This document shows, piece by piece, positions 29,186 through 45,024 of a stretch of DNA of 48,942 nt (position 1 is the stretch's first letter; each line of letters opens with the position of its first letter). Under the pieces are notes generated by a model. That model was not told the DNA's origin and ran no database searches. It saw only the letters and a program-made list of their open reading frames with translations. This stretch comes from Nanobdellota archaeon (GTDB taxonomy: Archaea > Nanobdellota > Nanobdellia > Woesearchaeales > JACJVW01). Position numbers and translations under genes: made by a program. Location: contig JBNJGT010000002.1 of NCBI GenBank assembly GCA_051819765.1, positions 1 to 48,942 of the forward strand. The letters are read 5' to 3'.

Positions 29186-30940
29186 ATGACGAGGATAGCA
29201 ATTGTTGACAAGGAACGCTGTAATCCTGTAAAATGCGGAGACCTATGCATAAAGCTGTGCCCGGTCAACCGCACCGGTAAGGAATGCATCAGGAAAGACG
29301 AAGAAGGAAAGGCTGCGATAGAGGAAGATCTCTGCACCGGCTGCGGCATCTGTTCCAACCGCTGTCCCTTTGATGCGATCTCAATAATCAACCTGCCAGA
29401 GGAACTCAACAATACCCCTATCCATCAATACGGTATGAATGGATTCCACCTCTACAATCTGCCTGTCCCGATTTTTGGCAAAGTGGTAGGGATCCTGGGA
29501 AGAAATGGCATCGGTAAATCAACTGCCTTCAAGGTTCTCGCAGGTATCATGAAACCCAACCTGGGTGAGGATGGCAAGGAGGCGACCTCCAAAGAACTCA
29601 TTGGCTTCTTCAAGGGAACTGAAGCGCAGCTTTTTTTCGAGAAACTGTCTGCAGGAAAGATCACCATCTCATACAAGCCGCAACAGGTAGAGATGATCCC
29701 TCGTGTCCAGGAAGGTACCATCAGGGATCTTCTGGAAAAGGTTGATGAGAAGGACGGCTTTGACCGCATCATCGAGATCCTTGAGCTCCAGCACATACTG
29801 GACACAGACATCAAGGACGTCTCCGGTGGGGAGCTCCAGCGGGTAGCGATTGCCGCTGCTTCACTGAAGGATGCGAACGTCTATTTCTTCGATGAACCTA
29901 CCTCATATCTTGACATCAAGCAAAGGATCAAGGTTTCCCGCTTCATCCGCGAGATGGCAACCGATGAGGTTGCTGTCATGGTCGTTGAGCACGACTTGGT
30001 CATACTCGATCATATGACTGATAACATCCATATCATGTACGGGAAACCAGGCGCCTACGGGATTGTCTCCCAACCCAAGGCCACAAAGGCAGGCATCAAT
30101 ACCTATCTTTCCGGCTACCTGCGCGAAGAGAACATCCGCTTCCGTGATAAACCCTTGACCTTCGAGGAGAAGATCCCCACTAACACGATTGAGCGTCAGC
30201 CCATTGTCAGTTGGTCAGAGCTGAAAAAACAACTTGGTACCTTCAGCCTCACTGCCAATCCAGGGACACTCAAGAAGAACGAGGTGAGCGGTATCTTAGG
30301 CCCGAACGGGATCGGTAAGACAAGTTTCGTGAAACTCTTGGCAGGAGCATCCGAACCTGATGAAGGATCAATCGATGAATCCGTAAAGGTCAGTTATAAG
30401 CCCCAGTACCTTGTTTCATATTCAACAGAGCTGGTCCAGACTCTCCTCTCAGAAGCTGTTGAGAAATACGAGGCCGCAATCATCCGTCCTTTGGAGATAA
30501 AACCCTTGCTCTTGAAACAGGTCAATCAGCTCTCCGGTGGCGAGCTCCAGCGGGTCTCAATCGCGCTTGCCCTCTCAAAGGATGCAAACCTCTATCTTCT
30601 GGATGAGCCATCAGCCTACCTGGACGTGGAACAACGCCTCGTAGCATCCCGCATCATCCGTGATTTCATGGAACAGAAAGGGAAATCATGCCTCATCGTC
30701 GACCACGATCTCTTGTTCATCGACTATATCTCTGATTCCCTCATGGTCTTTGACGGGCAGCCTGCAAAGGCAGGGGTCTCAAGCGGCCCTTATACCATGG
30801 CAGAAGGCATGAACCGATTCCTGGACGGGCTGAACACCACCTTGCGCCGTGACCCTGAGAATCATCGGCCACGGGTCAATAAGCTCGGATCCCAGATGGA
30901 TCAGAAACAAAAAAGAGAAGGAAAATTGTATTATTCCTGA
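29186..30940 (+). CDS. abcE1: ABCE1 / RNase L inhibitor-type ribosome recycling ATPase
   Basis: N-terminal Fe-S motifs CNPVKCGDLCIKLCP and CTGCGICSNRCP. Two ABC cassettes (GRNGIGKST, GPNGIGKTS, and SGGELQRV twice). Confidence 0.93.
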   Translation: MTRIAIVDKERCNPVKCGDLCIKLCPVNRTGKECIRKDEEGKAAIEEDLCTGCGICSNRCPFDAISIINLPEELNNTPIHQYGMNGFHLYNLPVPIFGKVVGILGRNGIGKSTAFKVLAGIMKPNLGEDGKEATSKELIGFFKGTEAQLFFEKLSAGKITISYKPQQVEMIPRVQEGTIRDLLEKVDEKDGFDRIIEILELQHILDTDIKDVSGGELQRVAIAAASLKDANVYFFDEPTSYLDIKQRIKVSRFIREMATDEVAVMVVEHDLVILDHMTDNIHIMYGKPGAYGIVSQPKATKAGINTYLSGYLREENIRFRDKPLTFEEKIPTNTIERQPIVSWSELKKQLGTFSLTANPGTLKKNEVSGILGPNGIGKTSFVKLLAGASEPDEGSIDESVKVSYKPQYLVSYSTELVQTLLSEAVEKYEAAIIRPLEIKPLLLKQVNQLSGGELQRVSIALALSKDANLYLLDEPSAYLDVEQRLVASRIIRDFMEQKGKSCLIVDHDLLFIDYISDSLMVFDGQPAKAGVSSGPYTMAEGMNRFLDGLNTTLRRDPENHRPRVNKLGSQMDQKQKREGKLYYS

Positions 30941-36832: not shown

Positions 36833-36942
36833 CATCCCCGTAAGGGATTCAGACTTCGCGCTCCGAACAGTGTGCACACCCCTTTCACCGTATATGAGGG
36901 TCCGCATGCAAGTCACTTTTTCGAAAAACTCAATCCATTACC

Positions 36943-36950
36943 TTTAAATG
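36943..36950 (+). promoter_or_regulatory. TATA box (TTTAAATG)
   Basis: 24 nt upstream of the in-frame ATG at 36974. This supports that start over the GTG at 36872. Confidence 0.5.
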
Positions 36951-36973
36951 TAACCTCTTTTTTCTCTGAATCC

Positions 36974-38386
36974 ATGCCATTATATCTGGATGGTGAGGAT
37001 GAGCTGGTATCACCTTTTGAAGAGGAATGTGGTATTGCAGGAGTCTTCAATGTATCCCATGCTTCACAGTACTGTTTTGAGGCTCTTTCTTTGCTTGAGC
37101 ATCGTGGAGAGAAAAGCGTGGGGATAGTATCTGAGGATGAGGATCGCATGTATTACCGCAGACGGATGGGCAAGGTCCATGAACAGTTTGTGAATTTTGA
37201 TTTTGACCAGCTTCCGGGAAGGATTGCAAGTGGGCAGAACCGGTATGCAACCTCCGGCCCAAGCGGCCTCTTGGATATTGATGGTGGCTCATCTGACACG
37301 CAGCCGCTTATTGTGCACCGCAGCAAGTTTGGACCCTTCACATTATCGCACAATGGGACAATCATCAATAAGTCCCTTGAAAAGAAGCTTATCGACGAGG
37401 GAGCAACATTCCAGTCAGGCACGGATTCAGAACTGTTAATCAAACTGATCGGAAAGAAGAACGCAGGCACCCTTGAGGAGGCTCTTGTTCAGACAGCTGA
37501 AGAGATTCCAGCAGCTTACTCGCTTGTCCTGCAGGCTCCCGGAAAGCTTATCGCCCTGCGGGACCGATTCGGCATACGGCCGTTGAGCATGGGGCGCATT
37601 GGTGAGGGCTATATTGTTGCCTCTGAGAGTTATGCGCTTGAACAGTTCCCGGAATGCACTGATATCCATGATATCAAAGCAGGTGAACTATGTGTCTTTT
37701 CAGACGGCTTGCACAGAAGGCAATACATTGAACCTGACAATCATTTCTGCATTTTTGAAGGGATCTACTTTTCAAATCCCCGGAGCGTGCATAATGACTG
37801 CTACCACGAAGACTTCAGGAAGGACTTGGGAAACCAGCTTTTCCAGGAGCATCATCTCGAAGGAGACCTGATCGTCCCGATCCTTGACTCTGGAAAGTTC
37901 GCGGCCATAGGACTCTCAAATGCCTCTGGCATCCCCTATGAAGAAGCCTTTCTAAGGATCCAGAACCCTCCTCGGTCCAACAACAGGTCATTCACTGCCT
38001 CCTGGGATCAGAGGGAACGTGCCGTCAGGAAAAAACTGAACCTGAGAGAAGATAAGGTCTATGACAAGGACGTGCTCGTGGTGGATGACACGATAGTGCG
38101 ATCCAACACCATGAATATCATAAACAAAAGGTTAAGGGAAGCAGGTGTGAGGTCCATCACGACCCTGATAACCGCACCGCCTGTTGAGGATACCTGTCCG
38201 TACGGGATGGACATCCAGACAAAGGAAGAACTGATAGCAAGCGATAATTCCATTGAAGGCATCAGGCAAAAGATTGGGAGTGATCATCTCTTCTATCTCT
38301 CATTAGAGGGACTTAATAAGGTCTCAGCAAGGCACTATCGCATCGGCACCTGCACTGGCTGCTTTGGCGGAAAGTATGCCTTGTAG
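36974..38386 (+). CDS. purF: Amidophosphoribosyltransferase (PurF-type Ntn glutamine amidotransferase) with 19-aa propeptide
   Basis: Nucleophile Cys in ECGIAGVFN. PRPP loop VLVVDDTIVRSNTM. C-terminal Cys ligands CPYGMD and CTGCFGGKY. Confidence 0.85.
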   Translation: MPLYLDGEDELVSPFEEECGIAGVFNVSHASQYCFEALSLLEHRGEKSVGIVSEDEDRMYYRRRMGKVHEQFVNFDFDQLPGRIASGQNRYATSGPSGLLDIDGGSSDTQPLIVHRSKFGPFTLSHNGTIINKSLEKKLIDEGATFQSGTDSELLIKLIGKKNAGTLEEALVQTAEEIPAAYSLVLQAPGKLIALRDRFGIRPLSMGRIGEGYIVASESYALEQFPECTDIHDIKAGELCVFSDGLHRRQYIEPDNHFCIFEGIYFSNPRSVHNDCYHEDFRKDLGNQLFQEHHLEGDLIVPILDSGKFAAIGLSNASGIPYEEAFLRIQNPPRSNNRSFTASWDQRERAVRKKLNLREDKVYDKDVLVVDDTIVRSNTMNIINKRLREAGVRSITTLITAPPVEDTCPYGMDIQTKEELIASDNSIEGIRQKIGSDHLFYLSLEGLNKVSARHYRIGTCTGCFGGKYAL

Positions 38387-38467
38387 GCTGGACACCAACC
38401 ACTTAGGCATGATTGGCATTGATCTAAGCATAGTCTAGGGCCTCATGAATCCCAAAGACACCAAAAC

Positions 38468-38475
38468 TTTAAATA
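38468..38475 (+). promoter_or_regulatory. TATA box (TTTAAATA) of the cimA leader transcript
   Basis: 23 nt upstream of the ATG at 38498, the window-wide leaderless spacing. Confidence 0.5.
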
Positions 38476-38497
38476 AATCTCTATCATTCCCCGGCAG

Positions 38498-38548
38498 ATG
38501 GCACGAACACCAAACCTGAATCTGATCATTCGTGCTATTATCAATTAG
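38498..38548 (+). CDS. Candidate Ile-rich leader peptide MARTPNLNLIIRAIIN
   Basis: 16 codons plus TAG. 4 Ile and 2 Leu. Lies 56 nt upstream of the citramalate synthase ATG. Confidence 0.4.
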   Translation: MARTPNLNLIIRAIIN

Positions 38549-38595
38549 AACCAGGCACGTAGTGCTTGGTCATCAATTCTGAGCGCTAGTGCCTG
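38500..38595 (+). promoter_or_regulatory. Leader RNA with alternative stem-loops (segments 1-4)
   Basis: Segment 1 GGCACGAA (38500-07) pairs with segment 2 TTCGTGC (38529-35). Segment 3 CAGGCAC (38552-58) pairs with segment 4 GTGCCTG (38589-95). The segment 2 core CGTGC can also pair with GCACG (38555-59). Confidence 0.4.
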
Positions 38596-38604
38596 TGGGA
38601 AACA

Positions 38605-40140
38605 ATGGAGATATACGATACATTATTGCGGGATGGGGCTCAGGCCGAAGGCGTCAACTTCAACACATCAGAAAAGCTGCGCATCATCAAGCTGCTTGAC
38701 GATTTTGGCATTGACTACATTGAAGCCGGCTGGCCCGCAAGCAGTGATTCAGATGCCGAGACCTTCCGGAAAGCCCCACAGCTTAACCACGCGACGCTGG
38801 TTGCGTTCGGATCGACCCATAACAAGAACCTTCCTGCCCACGCTGACCCCAACCTGGAAGCCATCATCTCATCAGGAGTGAGTACTGCCTGTATCTTTGG
38901 CAAGACATGGACCACCCATGTAAAAAACCAGCTCAATTGCACCAATGAGCGAAACCTTGAACTCATCCATGACAGCATTACCCATCTCAGACAGCAAGGC
39001 CTGACGGTCTTCTATGACCTGGAGCATTTCTTCGATGGCTTCAAGGATGACCCAGACTATGCCCGGGCCTGCATGCGCACCGCCCGTGGCGCCGGCGCCT
39101 CCCGCCTTGTCATGTGCGACACCAATGGCGGCATGCTTCCAGATGAAGTCCATGGCATCGTGGCAGGCCTGGCACAAGAATTTCCCAAAGATCTTCTAGG
39201 CGTCCACATGCACAACGATGGTGACATGGCTGTCGCGAACAGCCTCATCGCCTGCGACTACATCACCCAGATCCAGGGGACCATAAACGGCCTTGGTGAG
39301 CGCTGCGGCAACGCCAACCTTACCTCCCTCATACCCACGCTCATGCTCAAGAAGGGGATTGAGCTTCCTGTCAAGTTGGAACAGAATACTGAAATTAGCA
39401 AAGCAGTCTACAATTATGCAAACATCAAACCACCAACCCATCAGCCCTACAGCGGCAAATCAGCCTTCGCTCACAAAGGGGGCGTCCATGTGGGAGGCAT
39501 GAAAAATGGTGCAAACTATGAGCACATCGATCCTGCCTTGGTAGGAAACCGCACCCGCTACCTGCATTCCAAACAATCCGGCAAGACGAACATCAGTACC
39601 ATGGCCCAGGAGGCAGGCTTTGACATCCCTTCCAATGACCCACGCATACCGGAAGCCCTTTCCGAGCTCAAGCGCATGGATGAGATTGGATATGAGCTTG
39701 AAGGCATGCCTGCAGAGCGCTACCTCCTCATGCGAAAGCATTTTTCCGATCAGCCCCGCGTCATGTACCTCACTGGGTGGAGGGGCATGACAGAAGACTT
39801 TGAGAATGAGTCAAATGAAGCGATCATTGAAGGCATTGTCAACGGCTATTATGGGCTGGTCGTTGCAAAGAACATGCAGGATGGTCCTGTTGCAGCTCTT
39901 TATGACGCAATGCAAAAACTCGTGCTCCCCCATTTTCCCAAGATCAAAAACATGCATCTCACAGATTATAAATCCCGGATTGCACTGGAGAACGAACAGA
40001 ATTCAAGCATGCGGGTCTACGTTGAGTTTAGTAACAATGGTGATACATGGGCTACAGCAGGCATCAGTCGTAATACCATCAAGGCCGCCAAGATTGCTGT
40101 TGAGAAAGGCTTTCAGTACTACCTGAACAAGTATTGCTAA
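38605..40140 (+). CDS. cimA: Citramalate synthase-type enzyme (LeuA/CimA family, LeuA_rel type)
   Basis: YDTLLRDGAQAEGVNF and LGVHMHNDGDMAVANSL (HxH metal site). 511 aa with a C-terminal LeuA-dimer-like domain. The N-terminus resembles the bacterial-type CimA subgroup. Confidence 0.75.
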   Translation: MEIYDTLLRDGAQAEGVNFNTSEKLRIIKLLDDFGIDYIEAGWPASSDSDAETFRKAPQLNHATLVAFGSTHNKNLPAHADPNLEAIISSGVSTACIFGKTWTTHVKNQLNCTNERNLELIHDSITHLRQQGLTVFYDLEHFFDGFKDDPDYARACMRTARGAGASRLVMCDTNGGMLPDEVHGIVAGLAQEFPKDLLGVHMHNDGDMAVANSLIACDYITQIQGTINGLGERCGNANLTSLIPTLMLKKGIELPVKLEQNTEISKAVYNYANIKPPTHQPYSGKSAFAHKGGVHVGGMKNGANYEHIDPALVGNRTRYLHSKQSGKTNISTMAQEAGFDIPSNDPRIPEALSELKRMDEIGYELEGMPAERYLLMRKHFSDQPRVMYLTGWRGMTEDFENESNEAIIEGIVNGYYGLVVAKNMQDGPVAALYDAMQKLVLPHFPKIKNMHLTDYKSRIALENEQNSSMRVYVEFSNNGDTWATAGISRNTIKAAKIAVEKGFQYYLNKYC

Positions 40141-40142
40141 GG

Positions 40143-40150
40143 TTTTAAAT
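40143..40150 (+). promoter_or_regulatory. TATA box (TTTTAAAT)
   Basis: 24 nt upstream of the ATG at 40174. Confidence 0.55.
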
Positions 40151-40173
40151 AGGACACGCCATTCATAGGAATC

Positions 40174-40578
40174 ATGGAATTCGAATACCTTGACCACACA
40201 GCTGACGCAAAGTTTCGCGCCTATGGGAATACCCTCGAGGAAGCATTCAAGAACGCCATGCGGGCAATGTTCGGTCTCATAGTCCCCATCCAGGATGTTG
40301 AGCCGATAAGCCAGAAGAAGGTATCCCTTACTGCAGACCGTACCGAAGCGCTCCTGTATGATTTTTTGGAAGAGGGATTATTCCTTTTTGAGACAGACCA
40401 TTTCATTCCCTGTGACGCTGATATCAAGATCGCGGGCAACCATCTGGAGGCAAGCCTCTATGGAGACCTTATCCTCAACTATGAGATTGAGGGTGACGTG
40501 AAATCCGTTACATACAGTGATATGGACATCGCTCATAAGAATGGCCAATGGGTCATCACAATCGTAGTTGATATATAG
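40174..40578 (+). CDS. Archease (RtcB activator)
   Basis: MEFEYLDHTADAKFRAYGNTLEEAF. 134 aa, directly upstream of rtcB. Confidence 0.9.
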   Translation: MEFEYLDHTADAKFRAYGNTLEEAFKNAMRAMFGLIVPIQDVEPISQKKVSLTADRTEALLYDFLEEGLFLFETDHFIPCDADIKIAGNHLEASLYGDLILNYEIEGDVKSVTYSDMDIAHKNGQWVITIVVDI

Positions 40579-40585
40579 GTGTAAA

Positions 40586-42013
40586 ATGAAAGAGAAAGTA
40601 ACAAGAATTGATGAGTTTCGGTACAGGTTGGAACCCTTTGATGATATGAAGGTGCCGGCGGAGTTCTTCCTCAATGACACATTGTTTGATTTGCTCGAAG
40701 ACAAGGCAGTTGAGCAGCTAAAGAACGTCGCGTCGCTGCCTGGGATCTACAAGAAAGCGATTGCCATGCCGGATTGCCATATTGGGTATGGCTTTCCCAT
40801 CGGCGGCGTTGCTGCAATCGATCGGGAAACCGGCTGCATCAGCCCGGGTGGCATTGGCTTTGACATCAATTGCGGGGTGCGCATGCTTGCCACCAACCTC
40901 ACAAAGCAGGATGTGGAGCCTCGTATCCAGGAGCTCCTTGAGACACTCTTCAGGAATGTCCCCTCGGGCGTGGGCTCAGAGTCAGCCATCCGTCTCACGG
41001 ACAAGGACTTGCACGACGTCCTCACCTTCGGTGCCCGCTGGGCATTTGATCAGGGCTATGGGGTTGAGGAGGACACAAAGCGCTGTGAGGAAGAAGGGCG
41101 CATGAAATCCGCGGATGCAAACAAGGTAACTCCCCGGGCGAAAGCCAGGGGAAGAAAGCAACTGGGGTCCCTTGGTGCCGGCAACCATTTCCTGGAGATC
41201 CAGTTCGTCGAGGAGATACATGACCCTGAAATCGCAGAAACCTTCGGCATCACAAAAAAGGGCCAGATCGTTGTCATGATCCATTCGGGAAGCAGGGGCC
41301 TGGGCCATCAGGTCTGCTCAGATTACCTGCGAAAGATGGAGGATGCCTATCCTGATATCATGGCAAAGCTTCCGGAAAAGGACCTCATCTACGCACCCGC
41401 AGACTCCAAGCTTGCCCATGAGTATTTTGCGGCGATGAGTGCTGCCGCAAATTTTGCCTGGGCCAATCGTCACATCATGGCCCACCAGGTCAGAAAGTCC
41501 TTCACCAGCCTCTTCCCTCAGGCAACACTCGCGACCATCTATGATGTTGCCCACAACATCGCAAAGGAGGAAGAACACGAGATTGATGGTGTCACCCGTA
41601 AGGTCTGGACCCATCGGAAAGGCGCGACCCGCGCCTTCGGACCAGGCAGTCCTGAAATCCCTGAAGTCTACCGCAGCGTAGGACAACCAATCATCCTCCC
41701 AGGCAGCATGGGAACCGGCTCCTACCTGTTGGTTGGCTCACGCACCGCAGAAGAGCAGACATTCGGGTCAACTGCTCACGGTGCAGGCAGGGTCATGTCT
41801 CGTATGCAGGCAAAGAAGCAGTTCAAGGCTGAAGACATCGCACTGGAGCTTGAACGAAAGCAGATCTACATCAAGGCAGCATCACGAAAAGGGGTTTGTG
41901 AGGAGGCACCCCTTGTCTATAAGGACATCGACCAGGTCGTGGCAGTGAGCCATGCCGCGGGCATCGGGAACCTCATCGTCAAGGTACGCCCCTTCGGGGT
42001 CATCAAGGGATAA
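40586..42013 (+). CDS. rtcB: RNA-splicing ligase RtcB
   Basis: AMPDCHIGYGFPIGGVA, GIGFDINCGVRM, LGAGNHFLEIQ, IHSGSRGLGHQ and GSTAHGAGRVMSR. SD AGGTG lies 6 nt upstream of the ATG at 40586. Confidence 0.93.
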   Translation: MKEKVTRIDEFRYRLEPFDDMKVPAEFFLNDTLFDLLEDKAVEQLKNVASLPGIYKKAIAMPDCHIGYGFPIGGVAAIDRETGCISPGGIGFDINCGVRMLATNLTKQDVEPRIQELLETLFRNVPSGVGSESAIRLTDKDLHDVLTFGARWAFDQGYGVEEDTKRCEEEGRMKSADANKVTPRAKARGRKQLGSLGAGNHFLEIQFVEEIHDPEIAETFGITKKGQIVVMIHSGSRGLGHQVCSDYLRKMEDAYPDIMAKLPEKDLIYAPADSKLAHEYFAAMSAAANFAWANRHIMAHQVRKSFTSLFPQATLATIYDVAHNIAKEEEHEIDGVTRKVWTHRKGATRAFGPGSPEIPEVYRSVGQPIILPGSMGTGSYLLVGSRTAEEQTFGSTAHGAGRVMSRMQAKKQFKAEDIALELERKQIYIKAASRKGVCEEAPLVYKDIDQVVAVSHAAGIGNLIVKVRPFGVIKG

Positions 42014-42014
42014 A

Positions 42015-42022
42015 AATATAAA
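42015..42022 (+). promoter_or_regulatory. TATA box (AATATAAA) of gatCAB
   Basis: 23 nt upstream of the ATG at 42045, immediately after the rtcB stop. Confidence 0.5.
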
Positions 42023-42044
42023 CGAGAGGCCAATTGCATCTACC

Positions 42045-42326
42045 ATGGACGTGACACAGGATCTTATCCGTAAGGTGGCAGCAGTTGCCCGCCTCAATCT
42101 CACTGATGAGGAAGTTGCCGAATTCACTCCTCAACTAAAGGAAGTGCTTGACAGCTTTTCTGCATTGGATGAGGTTGACACAGAAGGGCTTGATCCAAGC
42201 TACCAGCCGGTGGATCTGCGAAACGTGCTAAGGGATGATACACGAAAGGAAAGCCTCAGCCAGGAAGAGGCGACACGAAATGCACAATCCCGTGACGGAT
42301 ACATTCTCGGGCCAAAGGCAAAATGA
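42045..42326 (+). CDS. gatC: Asp/Glu-tRNA(Asn/Gln) amidotransferase subunit C
   Basis: KVAAVARLNLTDEEV. 93 aa. ATGA overlap with gatA. Confidence 0.85.
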   Translation: MDVTQDLIRKVAAVARLNLTDEEVAEFTPQLKEVLDSFSALDEVDTEGLDPSYQPVDLRNVLRDDTRKESLSQEEATRNAQSRDGYILGPKAK

Positions 42327-43642
42327 TCGAGAAAACCAAACAAGTGTTAGCTGAATGCCGGGAGCTTGACAAGAATTATAATATTTTCTCAGAGATAACA
42401 GAGGACCTTGCCCTCTCACAGGCAAAAGCCAATAAGGGAGGCAAACTCCAGGGTATATTTATCACAGTCAAGGACTGTATCTGCATAAAGGATGTCGGGA
42501 CCCATTCATCAAGCCGGATTCTCAATGGCTACAAGCCTCTCTTCAATGCGACCGTCATCGACCGTCTGGCGGCAGAGGGAGCCATCATCATCGGAAAGAC
42601 CCTCCAGGATGAGTTCGGCTTTGGAACCTTCGGCACAAATACCGGTCTTGACTTTCCACAACCAAAAAACCCTGTTGACCCAGAGCGGGCACCTGGCGGC
42701 TCATCCGCGGGCTCGGGCATCATAAGCAAGCTTGCGACCTTCCCTCATGTCAGTCTCGGGGAGAGCACCGGAGGCTCAATAGTCAATCCTGCTGCTCTTT
42801 GTGGAACGTATGGGTTTTGCCCAACCTATGGGCGGGTGTCACGCTATGGTCTTCTTGATTATGGGAACTCCCTTGACAAGATAGGTCCCATGGGAAACGA
42901 CCCAAGTGCAATAGCAAAGGTATTGGAGGTCATCTCAGGCTTTGACGAGAACGAGTCGACCACCTTGAAAGAACCACTCCCAAAGCTTGACGGGACTTTC
43001 AAAGGAAAGGTCGGCGTCATAAAAGAGGCCTTTGGGGAAGGCATCTCACCGGACGTAAAGGGTGCACTCAACACCTACATCAAACAGCTCCGCGAAAACG
43101 GAATCGAGGTTGAGGAGATATCCCTGCAGACCCCGTATGAGAAAGGCATCGCAACCTACTACATCCTTTCACAATCAGAGTCAAGCACCAATCTTGCAAA
43201 ATACTGTGGCATGCGCTATGGCATGCACGAGGAGATGAGCGGCAATTTCAATGAGTATTTCTCGGCAGTGCGATCGAAACACTTCGGCAAAGAGGTCAAG
43301 CGCCGAATCCTCATAGGCACTTTCGCCCGCATGGTGGGTTTCCGGGATGCTTATTATCTCAAGGCCATGAAGGTGCGAACCAGGATCATCAACGAGTACA
43401 ACAAGGCATTCGAGAAGTACGATGTGCTCCTCAGTCCCACTGTTCCCTACGTCGCTCCTAAGTTTACCGACATCGAGAAGATGTCATTGCTTGAGACCTA
43501 CATGGCAGACGTCCTCACCGTCGGTCCGAACCTGGCAGGACTTCCCCATATGAATATACCTCTGGAAAGCTCCATGCCGGTTGGCGCAATGTTCATCGCA
43601 CCCCACATGAGAGAGGATCTATTGATACAGCTTGCAAAATGA
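42323..43642 (+). CDS. gatA: Asp/Glu-tRNA(Asn/Gln) amidotransferase subunit A
   Basis: Amidase signature APGGSSAGSG. 439 aa. Coupled to gatC and gatB by 4-nt overlaps. Confidence 0.9.
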   Translation: MIEKTKQVLAECRELDKNYNIFSEITEDLALSQAKANKGGKLQGIFITVKDCICIKDVGTHSSSRILNGYKPLFNATVIDRLAAEGAIIIGKTLQDEFGFGTFGTNTGLDFPQPKNPVDPERAPGGSSAGSGIISKLATFPHVSLGESTGGSIVNPAALCGTYGFCPTYGRVSRYGLLDYGNSLDKIGPMGNDPSAIAKVLEVISGFDENESTTLKEPLPKLDGTFKGKVGVIKEAFGEGISPDVKGALNTYIKQLRENGIEVEEISLQTPYEKGIATYYILSQSESSTNLAKYCGMRYGMHEEMSGNFNEYFSAVRSKHFGKEVKRRILIGTFARMVGFRDAYYLKAMKVRTRIINEYNKAFEKYDVLLSPTVPYVAPKFTDIEKMSLLETYMADVLTVGPNLAGLPHMNIPLESSMPVGAMFIAPHMREDLLIQLAK

Positions 43643-45024
43643 GATCAGACATAGTTATCGGGTTGGAGATTCATGTTGAGCTCGCAACAGACACAAAGCT
43701 CTTTTGCGGCTGTGCCCGCACTGGATCAGATGAACCCAACACCCGCACCTGTCCGGTCTGCCTGGGCCATCCCGGGGCAAAACCTGTCCTGAACAGAAAG
43801 GTCCTTGACTACGCCCTGCGGCTCTGCCTTGCCCTGGACTGCGAGATCGCTCCAGACCTCATCTTCTCCCGCAAATCATACTTCTACCCTGATATGGCAA
43901 AGAACTATCAGATCACCCAGTACGAGGATCCTCTAGGCAAGAACGGAAAACTGACCGTTGCAGGAAAGGACATCGCAATCACCCGGGTCCACATCGAGGA
44001 GGACCCCGCAGCCCTTGTCCATGGCAATGGGATGGTGCTTGTGGATTACAACCGTAGTGGTGACCCCCTCTGTGAGATCGTGACCGGCCCTGACCTGGAA
44101 AGTCCCGAAGAGGCCCGTGAATTCATGCGCCGGCTCATCGAGGTGATCCGCTACCTTGACATCTTCGATATCGACAGCTGTCTCATCAAGGCTGACGTCA
44201 ACGTCTCAATCAAAGAATCCGGCTACAAGCGGGCAGAGATCAAGAATATCACTGGATTCAAGGAGATCGAACGCGCCCTCTACTACGAGGTCAGCCGCCA
44301 GAAGAAGGCGGTCGCGGATAACGAGGAGCTCGCGATCGAGACCCGTGGCTGGGATCCTGAACAAGGATTCACCTATTCCATGCGAAAGAAGGAAAGCGAA
44401 GAGGACTACGGCTACATCCTTGACCCTGACCTCACCATCACTGACGTGACCCATGACATGATAGAGGCAATCAAGGCTGACATGCCCGAGCTTGCCCAAA
44501 GCAAGGTCGCACGATATATCAAAGAACTCAAGTTAGACGAGATAGACGCCCAGGTCATCGCAAGCGACCGCCTTCTCGCTGAGTTGTTCGAGGAAGTATC
44601 ACAACAAGTTGACCCGGTCATTGCCGCCCGCTGGCTCCGCCGTGAGCTGTTGCGGGTCTTGAACTACAACAAGCTTGACATCCGCGATATCACCATAAAC
44701 GCAACCCATCTCTCTGAACTTCTCCAGCTCGTTGAGAAGAAAAAGATCACCGAGAACACTGCTAAGGATATCATCCAGGAACTGGTCATAACACCCTTTG
44801 ACGTGCACCAGTATATCAAGGATCACGGTTTGGAAGCAGTCTCTGATGAGGGAGAGCTTGAAGCCTTCTGCAAGGAAGCAATCGAAGAGAACCCTCAGGC
44901 AGTCGTAGAGCTGAAAGAAGGGAAATCAAAGGCGCTCAACTTCCTTGTCGGCCAGGTCATGAAAAAATCAAAAGGGAAGGCCTCTCCTGCCCGGGTCAAC
45001 GAGCTCATCCGAAGCCTCATATGA
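43639..45024 (+). CDS. gatB: Asp/Glu-tRNA(Asn/Gln) amidotransferase subunit B
   Basis: TCPVCLGHPGAKPVLN. C-terminal YqeY-like GKSKALNFLVGQVMK. Confidence 0.92.
   Translation: MRSDIVIGLEIHVELATDTKLFCGCARTGSDEPNTRTCPVCLGHPGAKPVLNRKVLDYALRLCLALDCEIAPDLIFSRKSYFYPDMAKNYQITQYEDPLGKNGKLTVAGKDIAITRVHIEEDPAALVHGNGMVLVDYNRSGDPLCEIVTGPDLESPEEAREFMRRLIEVIRYLDIFDIDSCLIKADVNVSIKESGYKRAEIKNITGFKEIERALYYEVSRQKKAVADNEELAIETRGWDPEQGFTYSMRKKESEEDYGYILDPDLTITDVTHDMIEAIKADMPELAQSKVARYIKELKLDEIDAQVIASDRLLAELFEEVSQQVDPVIAARWLRRELLRVLNYNKLDIRDITINATHLSELLQLVEKKKITENTAKDIIQELVITPFDVHQYIKDHGLEAVSDEGELEAFCKEAIEENPQAVVELKEGKSKALNFLVGQVMKKSKGKASPARVNELIRSLI

Follow-up and report, generated by a model that had tools for sequence, protein, structure and literature searches.

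Does an archaeon let the ribosome, translating a short leader peptide, report on its supply of isoleucine? The question is raised by the region upstream of cimA, the gene for citramalate synthase, in a stretch of 48,942 nucleotides (nt) from a Nanobdellota archaeon (contig JBNJGT010000002.1; hereafter the window, by which we mean the whole stretch that was analysed). There, a 16-codon open reading frame (ORF) containing four Ile codons lies between a promoter-like element and the cimA start codon, and potential hairpins overlap and follow it. A preliminary description of this DNA had read the arrangement as an attenuator-like leader. Based on the comparison of related cimA loci, on RNA folding and on simulations of ribosome position, we believe that the leader acts in cis as a ribosome-mediated sensor of isoleucine supply, a leader peptide that regulates cimA, and we place the probability of this reading at about 0.65. 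The features on which the argument turns are as follows.

38460–38475, forward strand: predicted promoter, a purine-rich stretch resembling a B recognition element (BRE) and then the TATA box TTTAAATA (38468–38475), the octamer starting 30 nt before the ATG at 38498.
38498–38548, forward strand: predicted leaderless upstream ORF (the leader ORF), encoding MARTPNLNLIIRAIIN and a stop; Ile-rich ORFs occupy the same position at 11 further distinct loci.
38525–38542, forward strand: putative sensor codons, Ile10-Ile11 (38525–38530) and Ile14-Ile15 (38537–38542), with Arg and Ala codons between them.
38498–38507, forward strand: segment A, AUGGCACGAA (segment 1 of the preliminary description), which includes the 5'-terminal start codon and pairs with 38529–38538 in both the minimum free energy (MFE) and the centroid structure.
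38529–38538, forward strand: segment B, UUCGUGCUAU (segment 2), inside the Ile-codon block and pairing with segment A.
38551–38597, forward strand: long hairpin 3:4, 18 base pairs (bp) with a 9-nt loop (38570–38578), its 3' arm ending 8 nt before the cimA ATG.
38551–38569, forward strand: alternative small hairpin, CCAGGCAC-GUA-GUGCUUGG, mutually exclusive with the long hairpin; this is the RNAalifold consensus of the window and its closest relative, locus L081.
38570–38580, forward strand: pyrimidine-rich motif UCAUCAAUUCU, a degenerate copy of the relatives' CAUUGUUUCU, UUGUUCUUUCU and UCAAUUUCU, as judged from a comparison of this module in 12 leaders.
38596–38607, forward strand: cimA initiation region, with a weak Shine-Dalgarno (SD)-like UGGGA (38596–38600) and the ATG at 38605.
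38605–40140, forward strand: cimA, citramalate synthase of 511 amino acids, a TIGR00977 equivalog and the regulated gene in our proposal.

The TATA box, the ATG, the extent of the leader ORF, its Ile codons and the 56 nt that separate its stop from the cimA ATG at 38605 all lie where the preliminary description had placed them. The ORF reads ATG GCA CGA ACA CCA AAC CTG AAT CTG ATC ATT CGT GCT ATT ATC AAT TAG, and its Ile content taken alone is a modest enrichment (4/16 against 7.6% Ile in window proteins; binomial P = 0.02). It had also been claimed that about 20 other genes of the window show the same spacing of TATA box and ATG; this was roughly right, although our count is lower, since a TATA-like octamer agreeing at at least 7 of 8 positions stands 27–34 nt upstream of 14 of the 45 candidate gene starts in the window, with three more at 6/8. 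An ATG 30 nt after the start of the TATA box is thus the spacing found at 14–17 leaderless gene starts in the window and at the mini-ORFs of all relatives, and transcription is predicted to start at or near A38498. No TATA-like element lies 27–34 nt before the cimA ATG itself (best 5/8), for which reason we rejected a separate cimA promoter in the window; cimA presumably relies on the promoter at 38468, with an unusual leader of 107 nt.

The strongest evidence is comparative. Sixteen distinct cimA loci of the Woesearchaeota clade were available, a sample rather than an unbiased census: they comprise the DNA around CimA homologues together with four loci from one metagenome scan using the DNA pattern CTACRN{10,18}YGTAGYCATTGTTTCT, which gave 28 matches, only 4 of them adjoining cimA. 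At 12 of the 16 (CimA identity 44–73%), BRE/TATA elements stand 30–33 nt before the ATG of an Ile-rich ORF, and this holds for every leader-bearing relative. The 12 leader ORFs have 13–25 codons, consist of 25–52% Ile and end shortly before cimA. Their products are listed here by locus.

Window: MARTPNLNLIIRAIIN
L081 (73% CimA identity and the same cimA-archease-RtcB-GatCAB synteny): MAQDICIGFLNRFFNICAIQIIQ
L083: MKSNTLIGIIIILF
L084: MRILNAQIIIIFQ
L088: MNQAMQNKIASVIII
L121: MRHSNDSIIIIRII
L124: MANITKIKSSMILLAIIIIII
L085: MKYSYAIKRFSKVFLIIGIVIIA
L087: MTDSIYLIIISIVGILIIA
L110: MKDSIIKNIMSRVFLIIGIIIIA
L101: MSDSIKISSIISIIIGIIIIA
L089: MNDSIKNKKLNFFLVIAIIIGIIIG

Apart from their Ile content the peptides of different leader types are unrelated, as a glance at those of the window, L083, L084, L088, L121, L124 and L101 makes plain; leader peptides commonly diverge in this way. 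In the first 10 peptides taken together, 66 of 182 residues are Ile (36%), against 7.6% in window proteins, whereas Leu (6.6%) and Val (3.3%) are not enriched and stay below proteome levels. The preliminary description had suggested looking in relatives for a short ORF rich in Ile, Leu or Val; what the relatives hold is an ORF rich in Ile only. Across all 12 leaders there are 81 Ile codons in the ATG frame and only 14 and 13 in the other two, which argues that the run is read as Ile and is not merely A+U-rich. The last Ile codon falls 0–2 codons before the stop in 12/12 leaders, and the window's pattern, II-R-(A)-II-x-stop, matches the IIIIRII-stop of L121. Other promoter-proximal short ORFs of the same archaeal loci have no amino-acid bias. 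Likewise, 80 mostly bacterial cimA loci yielded only four weak, chance-like matches to such an ORF under looser criteria; this control set came from a CimA search of genome contigs, among the listed matches of which almost all were bacterial loci at 40–45% identity. Taken together, these comparisons support the mini-ORF as a genuine, conserved and Ile-specific leader ORF at the predicted start of transcription. Programmed frameshifting or fusion into cimA was rejected, as the frame relation of leader ORF and cimA varies among loci (leaders of 107, 111, 119, 109 and 126 nt).

The downstream enzyme is of the kind that this leader would suit. CimA passes the curated NCBIfam equivalog model TIGR00977 (470.3 bits, cut-off 450) and scores far under the cut-offs of all LeuA, isopropylmalate synthase and homocitrate synthase models, as expected from the preliminary assignment to the citramalate synthase type; Pfam finds HMGL-like, HCS_D2 and the regulatory LeuA_dimer domains on it. 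By these models it is a bona fide citramalate synthase, and the Ile-only bias of the leaders provides independent corroboration for the annotation of this LeuA-family enzyme.

The RNA between the predicted transcription start and cimA folds in a way that ties the Ile codons to the rest of the leader. The MFE structure of 38498–38625 consists of exactly two hairpins (-36.6 kcal/mol, z-score -2.56), which are the two pairings that had been proposed beforehand. Hairpin 1:2 (A:B), with the core pairing of GGCACGAA (38500–38507) to TTCGTGC (38529–38535), reaches -10.8 kcal/mol when folded alone (z-score -2.67; 2 of 200 shuffled sequences as good), and the long hairpin 3:4, with the core pairing of CAGGCAC (38552–38558) to GTGCCTG (38589–38595), reaches -25.7 kcal/mol (z-score -4.15; 0 of 200). 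Since the window-type leader has one close relative, L081, its covariation is that of two sequences. Between them A:B shows one compensatory change (G-C to A-U), and the long hairpin keeps 17–18 bp through three compensatory double changes and an indel, read by eye from the two MFE structures rather than by a formal pair count. The nucleotides conserved between the window and L081 are those of the stem segments, not of the codons. Segment B can alternatively pair with GGCACG of segment C, a pairing of 6 bp including one G-U that is as weak as the preliminary description had judged it; the base that differs between the window and L081 changes jointly in A, B and C (G/C/G to A/U/A).

What the preliminary description had missed is the small hairpin at 38551–38569 and the pyrimidine motif behind it. 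The small hairpin forms in transcripts truncated before 38583, both of its arms are invariant between the window and L081, and by position it appears homologous to a post-stop hairpin that is clear in 10 of the 12 leaders. In the relatives that hairpin is followed by CAUUGUUUCU, UUGUUCUUUCU or UCAAUUUCU, a U-rich but interrupted tract, and it begins 9–12 nt downstream of the last Ile codon's first base. In the L085 type it carries a compensatory G-C to A-U change, with two double changes in L089, where MAFFT misaligned the hairpin and the pairs were read from individual folds. Segment A always lies within nt 1–17 of the predicted transcript, often including the AUG, and its partner B falls within the Ile run or beside it, although the sequences of both are unrelated between leader types. 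Furthermore, A resembles C and B resembles D: the window has GGCAC twice and GUGCY three times, the L085 type has AUUCC/GGAAU and L121 has CGAA/UUCG. Repeats of this kind are a signature of alternative pairing. A reading of the inverted repeats as a DNA operator was rejected, given that all non-Watson-Crick pairs are G-U on the forward strand and that the distance between the arms of A and B varies from 27 to 48 nt, both of which favour RNA structure. A T-box or another known RNA family was likewise rejected, as no Rfam model matched at gathering score in the window; with the expectation value (E) relaxed to 10, Rfam gave no relevant match in 38380–38700, and 19 other cimA loci likewise showed no catalogued RNA element upstream.

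Based on these observations, we propose a model for the leader. Transcription from the BRE/TATA element at 38460–38475 would start at or next to A38498, so that the messenger RNA (mRNA) would begin with the AUG of the 16-codon ORF on a 107-nt leader, in a genome most of whose genes appear to be leaderless. A ribosome would translate the ORF, and its transit over the four late Ile codons would depend on charged tRNA-Ile. Hairpin A:B would tie the 5'-terminal AUG region to the Ile-codon block, the 18-bp hairpin, starting 3 nt after the stop, would bury everything down to a point 8 nt short of the cimA AUG, and the position of the ribosome would select between structures and hence set the amount of CimA. 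For the window our leading guess is a translational output, in which the long hairpin would close the cimA start region (about 12 kcal/mol to open) and would yield only to ribosomes that complete the leader ORF. One that slows down on the Ile codons would hold segment B and leave the 5' AUG unpaired, allowing further ribosomes to load. Low Ile would then mean sustained leader translation, repeated transient opening of the hairpin and more CimA. The sensor part of this model is well supported; the output step is not, and we offer this particular combination of gating and translational coupling tentatively, as something we would sooner doubt than assume. Alternatively, the stalled ribosome might stabilise the mRNA.

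Several features of the leader make it distinct from a trp-type attenuator. Its sensor codons stand at the end of the ORF, would pair with the mRNA's own 5'-terminal AUG and abut a hairpin that follows the stop. The Ile codons occupy nt 28–45 of the predicted transcript and overlap segment B (nt 32–41), so that a ribosome stalled there would bury B instead of freeing it, as it does when its footprint is masked in simulation. The four-segment design that the preliminary description had recognised, with its 1:2, 2:3 and 3:4 pairings, does recur in other leader types, but the strict trp-type logic fails in the window, where the Ile codons lie on segment 2 and not on segment 1 and where a 2:3 pairing of 6 bp cannot outcompete a 3:4 hairpin of -25.7 kcal/mol. 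This geometry would imply a different mechanism, possibly stall-maintained ribosome loading with translational coupling or a regulated termination of archaeal type.

Simulations of ribosome position speak to the output step. They mask a standard footprint of -15 to +12 around the A site, a bacterial-like assumption on which the results depend. In the free window RNA, opening the region from -15 to +4 of cimA costs 11.7–11.9 kcal/mol, compared with only 1.5–8 kcal/mol in relatives; the predicted fold of the window leader thus contains a duplex that sequesters the downstream start region. A ribosome on codon 16 or on the stop, and only there, lowers this cost to 6.4–9.2 kcal/mol, and with a ribosome on codons 12–16 the 5' end can be opened for 1.5 instead of 5.0 kcal/mol.

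A number of results weigh against the reading of the leader as an isoleucine sensor or against its proposed output. With the ribosome at Ile10 to Ile15 the cimA start gains no relief (9.7–14.5 kcal/mol), and the simulations of relatives show no consistent effect of a stalled ribosome on the start region, so that release of the cimA start by such a ribosome was rejected. The 5' end of the free leader is no harder to open than that of shuffled sequences (5.0 against 5.4 ± 2.1 kcal/mol in the window), which leaves the gating step without special thermodynamic support; masking segment B does lower the opening energy, but since free leaders behave like shuffled ones we rejected the idea that the 5' AUG is specially closed. 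The leader ORF is no more complementary to the cimA start region than shuffled sequences are, and on this ground a direct pairing of sensor tract and start region, as in mycobacteria, was also rejected. In most relatives 25–90 nt separate the post-stop hairpin from cimA, whose start region it leaves free; the output by translation that we suggest for the window cannot be a general one. Four of the 16 clade loci (L001, L091, L122 and L123) lack an Ile leader, carry a TATA box about 30 nt before cimA itself and manage without the leader. The poly-Ile products of 19–25 amino acids in relatives could also be tiny hydrophobic peptides, and the window ORF alone is weakly enriched in Ile, its significance coming from the relatives. 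Finally, the transcription start, translation of the ORF, stalling, dependence on Ile and the output step are all predictions from sequence.

The main rival explanation is classical transcription attenuation, in which the small hairpin at 38551–38569 and the tract at 38570–38580 would cause early termination or pausing, perhaps with help from aCPSF1/FttA. Pairing B:C would be the antiterminator and A:B the anti-antiterminator, and an early stall would mask A, free B and prevent termination. The post-stop hairpin with CAUUGUUUCU, UUGUUCUUUCU or UCAAUUUCU is indeed the most widely conserved RNA feature of the leaders, L089 keeps this module although its cimA lies 75 nt further away, which suggests that the module acts autonomously, and the likeness of A to C and of B to D is found in three unrelated families. 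Long-ORF relatives, moreover, have early Ile codons (codon 5 or 7), and masking these yields the B:C pairing in simulated truncated transcripts; in those leaders the hairpin and U-rich tract could be a weak terminator or pause site. In the window, however, no Ile codon precedes codon 10, so that an Ile stall would mask B and not A; conservation is strongest for the Ile codons nearest the stop, and these would favour termination and thus give the wrong sign; and B:C has only 6 bp against the -25.7 kcal/mol of its competitor. Nor does the window's leader look like a place of termination. Its tract UCAUCAAUUCU has no run of more than two U, no T-run longer than two occurs in 38498–38604, and a terminator scan of the leader found nothing. 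The preliminary description had seen no oligo-T after segment 4, and its preference for translational control was reasonable for the window. Ordinary genes of the window end in runs of five to seven T without obvious hairpins, in the manner of archaeal termination (30860–30931 on the reverse strand, downstream of an FKBP gene; also after 1153, 9072, 23733, 33351 and 45026), and archaeal termination has no known need for hairpins (PMC7515710). One of these ordinary gene-end runs, TTTTTTGTTTCTGA, does resemble the relatives' leader motif CATTGTTTCTGA, a likeness that favours the termination module. On balance we find termination or pausing at the hairpin-pyrimidine module unlikely in the window and a stronger candidate in the relatives.

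The remaining explanations deny the leader ORF a sensing role. Were the mini-ORF to encode a small hydrophobic peptide acting in trans, for example a membrane micropeptide whose Ile content reflects hydrophobicity in AT-rich genomes, one could understand why several relatives have products of 19–25 amino acids that resemble a single hydrophobic helix (L087 and L101 among them) and why these share the N-terminus M-x-D-S-I. This is hard to reconcile with five leaders of 13–16 amino acids, too short to span a membrane, with the lack of sequence conservation across leader types, with hydrophobic residues that are almost exclusively Ile, Leu and Val being rarer than in the proteome, with the presence of such ORFs only beside cimA (as judged from the mostly bacterial control set and the short ORFs of the same loci), or with a conservation between the window and L081 that favours stem segments over codons; we regard it as improbable. 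We are nearly as sceptical of the view that the hairpins form a protein- or ligand-binding RNA element, or stabilise the transcript, with the ORF incidental to regulation. The hairpins are strong and covary, L083 and L084 have a 27-nt block in common, a TrmB-family regulator gene adjoins cimA in many relatives, and no ribosome-dependent switch emerged from the simulations. Such an element, which would match no Rfam family, leaves unexplained why an ATG stands 30 nt after the start of the TATA box, why the Ile run is specific to one frame, and why the stop stays fixed 0–2 codons past the last Ile, features that are kept while the hairpin sequences are replaced. As for a chance ORF with chance hairpins in an intergenic spacer, the weak enrichment in the window alone would permit it, but the 12 loci at 44–73% CimA identity, the frame test, the negative controls, the shuffle z-scores and the compensatory changes effectively refute it.

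Some of the leaders have peculiarities of their own. Read on the opposite strand, the window's start context of cimA, GAAACAATGG (38598–38607), is identical to CCATTGTTTC, the conserved motif found behind the hairpin in L085, L087, L101 and L110 and itself absent from the window; the complementarity may be a coincidence or the relic of an ancient pairing that once hid the start codon. The SDs of cimA are clearer in relatives (GGAGG, AAGGUGA, AGGGGUG) than in the window. The block common to L083 (about 1262–1293) and L084 (about 1462–1490), some 27 nt with the sequence ATCAAGACG[CT]CC[AT]GAGATA[AG]CGCTAT, lies between leader ORF and cimA and is shared despite a CimA identity of only 54%. The codons for Ile-Gly-Ile in L083, ATCGGGAT, find a perfect complement in ATCCCGAT, which immediately precedes the SD. 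L089, L090 and L097 carry an insertion of about 75 nt between the hairpin motif and cimA (about 1425–1500 in L089), in which AAAAATGATAA is what remains of the usual cimA start and GGAGGA is a strong SD. It also contains TTAATAAA 31 nt before the real cimA ATG, possibly a second promoter, and L089 may therefore have a separate promoter for cimA.

The sequence places the host of the window as a Woesearchaeota-like DPANN archaeon. The G+C content is about 49%, the closest CimA proteins are labelled Candidatus Woesearchaeota or Nanoarchaeota (73% and 56% identity, then 44–49%), and the neighbours of cimA are archaeal housekeeping genes: archease, RtcB, GatCAB, ABCE1, a DnaG-type primase and topoisomerase. 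Among the genes of the window, cimA is the only one for branched-chain amino acids. The order cimA-archease-RtcB(-GatC-GatA-GatB) is common to the window (38605–45024), L081 (235–4770; 73%) and L121 (1001–3548; 44%), other clade members having TrmB-cimA-TBP-MCM instead. In many relatives the TrmB-family regulator gene precedes cimA in divergent orientation, at the following places.

L085, 448–1233, reverse strand: TrmB-family gene.
L087, 455–1240, reverse strand: TrmB-family gene.
L089, 1–412, reverse strand: TrmB-family gene.
L091, 601–1386, reverse strand: TrmB-family gene.
L122, 111–893, reverse strand: TrmB-family gene.
L123, 126–905, reverse strand: TrmB-family gene.

It is present at three of the four loci without an Ile leader, and the intergenic sequence of the fourth, L001, is similar; the TrmB-family protein may regulate cimA in place of the leader or in addition to it. 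The window lacks the TrmB-family gene, and purF sits upstream of cimA there. The purF ORF (36872–38386, forward strand) is listed from a GTG, but its alignment to the amidophosphoribosyltransferase model begins only at residue 53, and translation probably starts downstream of the listed GTG. Inside cimA, archaeal C/D-box small RNA models match 38638–38691 on the reverse strand below threshold (12–13 bits against a gathering score of 36–45; E 0.5–9), most likely by chance.

Leader-peptide attenuation is a textbook bacterial mechanism that relies on coupled transcription and translation, and its enterobacterial examples are trpL, hisL, pheL, ilvL of ilvGMEDA and ivbL of ilvBN. With these the archaeal leaders share a peptide rich in the cognate amino acid before a biosynthetic gene, and four segments with 1:2, 2:3 and 3:4 pairings. 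In hisL and pheL the regulatory codons run almost to the stop and the next stem follows just after, as in the window leader. The enterobacterial leaders differ in having an SD-dependent leader ORF, a G+C-rich terminator hairpin with a U-run, and their codons on segment 1, none of which is seen in the window; only the relatives with Ile at codon 5 or 7 have sensor codons placed in the trp manner. Furthermore, the ilv leaders are multivalent, responding to Ile, Leu and Val, whereas the archaeal leaders are Ile-only. In the ermC and cat leaders, as proposed here, a hairpin hides the downstream start region and opens or stays closed according to where in a short leader ORF the ribosome is arrested. 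The signal in that case is an antibiotic together with the nascent peptide, not tRNA charging, and the arrested ribosome sits on the partner of the sequestering hairpin's 5' arm, whereas a ribosome on the window's Ile codons would only abut the hairpin.

What the archaeal loci have in common with attenuators in general is a short 5' ORF enriched in codons for the amino acid of the downstream pathway, with ORF and codon bias conserved at 12 of 16 clade loci and the peptide sequence not. Of the trp-type pairings, 1:2 (-10.8 kcal/mol) and 3:4 (-25.7 kcal/mol) are stable and 2:3 has only 6 bp, its variable base covarying in segments 1, 2 and 3; the U-run terminator and the trp-type codon placement are missing from the window, and a stall at the sensor codons does not open the duplex as in the ermC or Cys type, at least with the assumed footprint. 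The leader is therefore best described as leader-peptide attenuator-like and as a member of neither subtype.

Two bacterial systems come closer. Corynebacterium glutamicum ilvBNC is reported to have a short leader peptide without a ribosome-binding site (PMC10272879, PMC11857589; Morbach et al., 2000, as cited there). Compared by description only, it resembles the window in its branched-chain pathway, its leaderless short peptide and its several competing hairpins; it differs in being bacterial and multivalent (Ile, Leu and Val), and in that termination of transcription at a terminator is the mechanism described for it. The closest functional precedent is provided by the leaderless poly-Cys short ORFs of mycobacteria (Ms5788A type), translational attenuators that sense tRNA-Cys (Canestrari et al., bioRxiv 10.1101/834739). 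Both kinds of ORF, the archaeal one by prediction, open the mRNA directly, without a leader or an SD, and contain consecutive codons for the amino acid of the downstream pathway gene. For both, sensing of charged tRNA by ribosome pausing and a translational output without an intrinsic terminator have been proposed, and both appear to have evolved repeatedly with unrelated peptide sequences. The mycobacterial system is bacterial and experimentally shown; the host of the present leader is an archaeon. In mycobacteria the downstream ribosome-binding site is locked in a duplex to which the Cys tract contributes and which a stalled ribosome blocks. In the window, by contrast, the Ile tract would pair with the mRNA's own 5' end, the hairpin after the stop is separate, and complementarity to the cimA start was not detectable.

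The preliminary description had held that ribosome-mediated leader-peptide control is not established in archaea, and our search of the literature agrees: it found only bacterial cases of leader-peptide or ribosome-mediated attenuation, its coverage being incomplete and absence no proof. [quoted passage not shown] We think the chances somewhat better than even that the cimA leader is the first case of amino-acid-sensing, ribosome-mediated leader-peptide control in Archaea, conserved in a DPANN clade, built on leaderless translation and different in geometry from the trp type. If so, the use of ribosomes to sense metabolism would extend to a second domain of life, and the leader would be a concrete case of what coupling or leaderless translation offers to archaeal regulation. 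It would also mean that these archaea, with their reduced genomes, actively regulate an enzyme of the isoleucine pathway, which bears on the degree of their dependence on a host. Finally, it would lend support to the view, proposed for mycobacteria, that evolution can readily arrive at such sensors by way of leaderless short ORFs.

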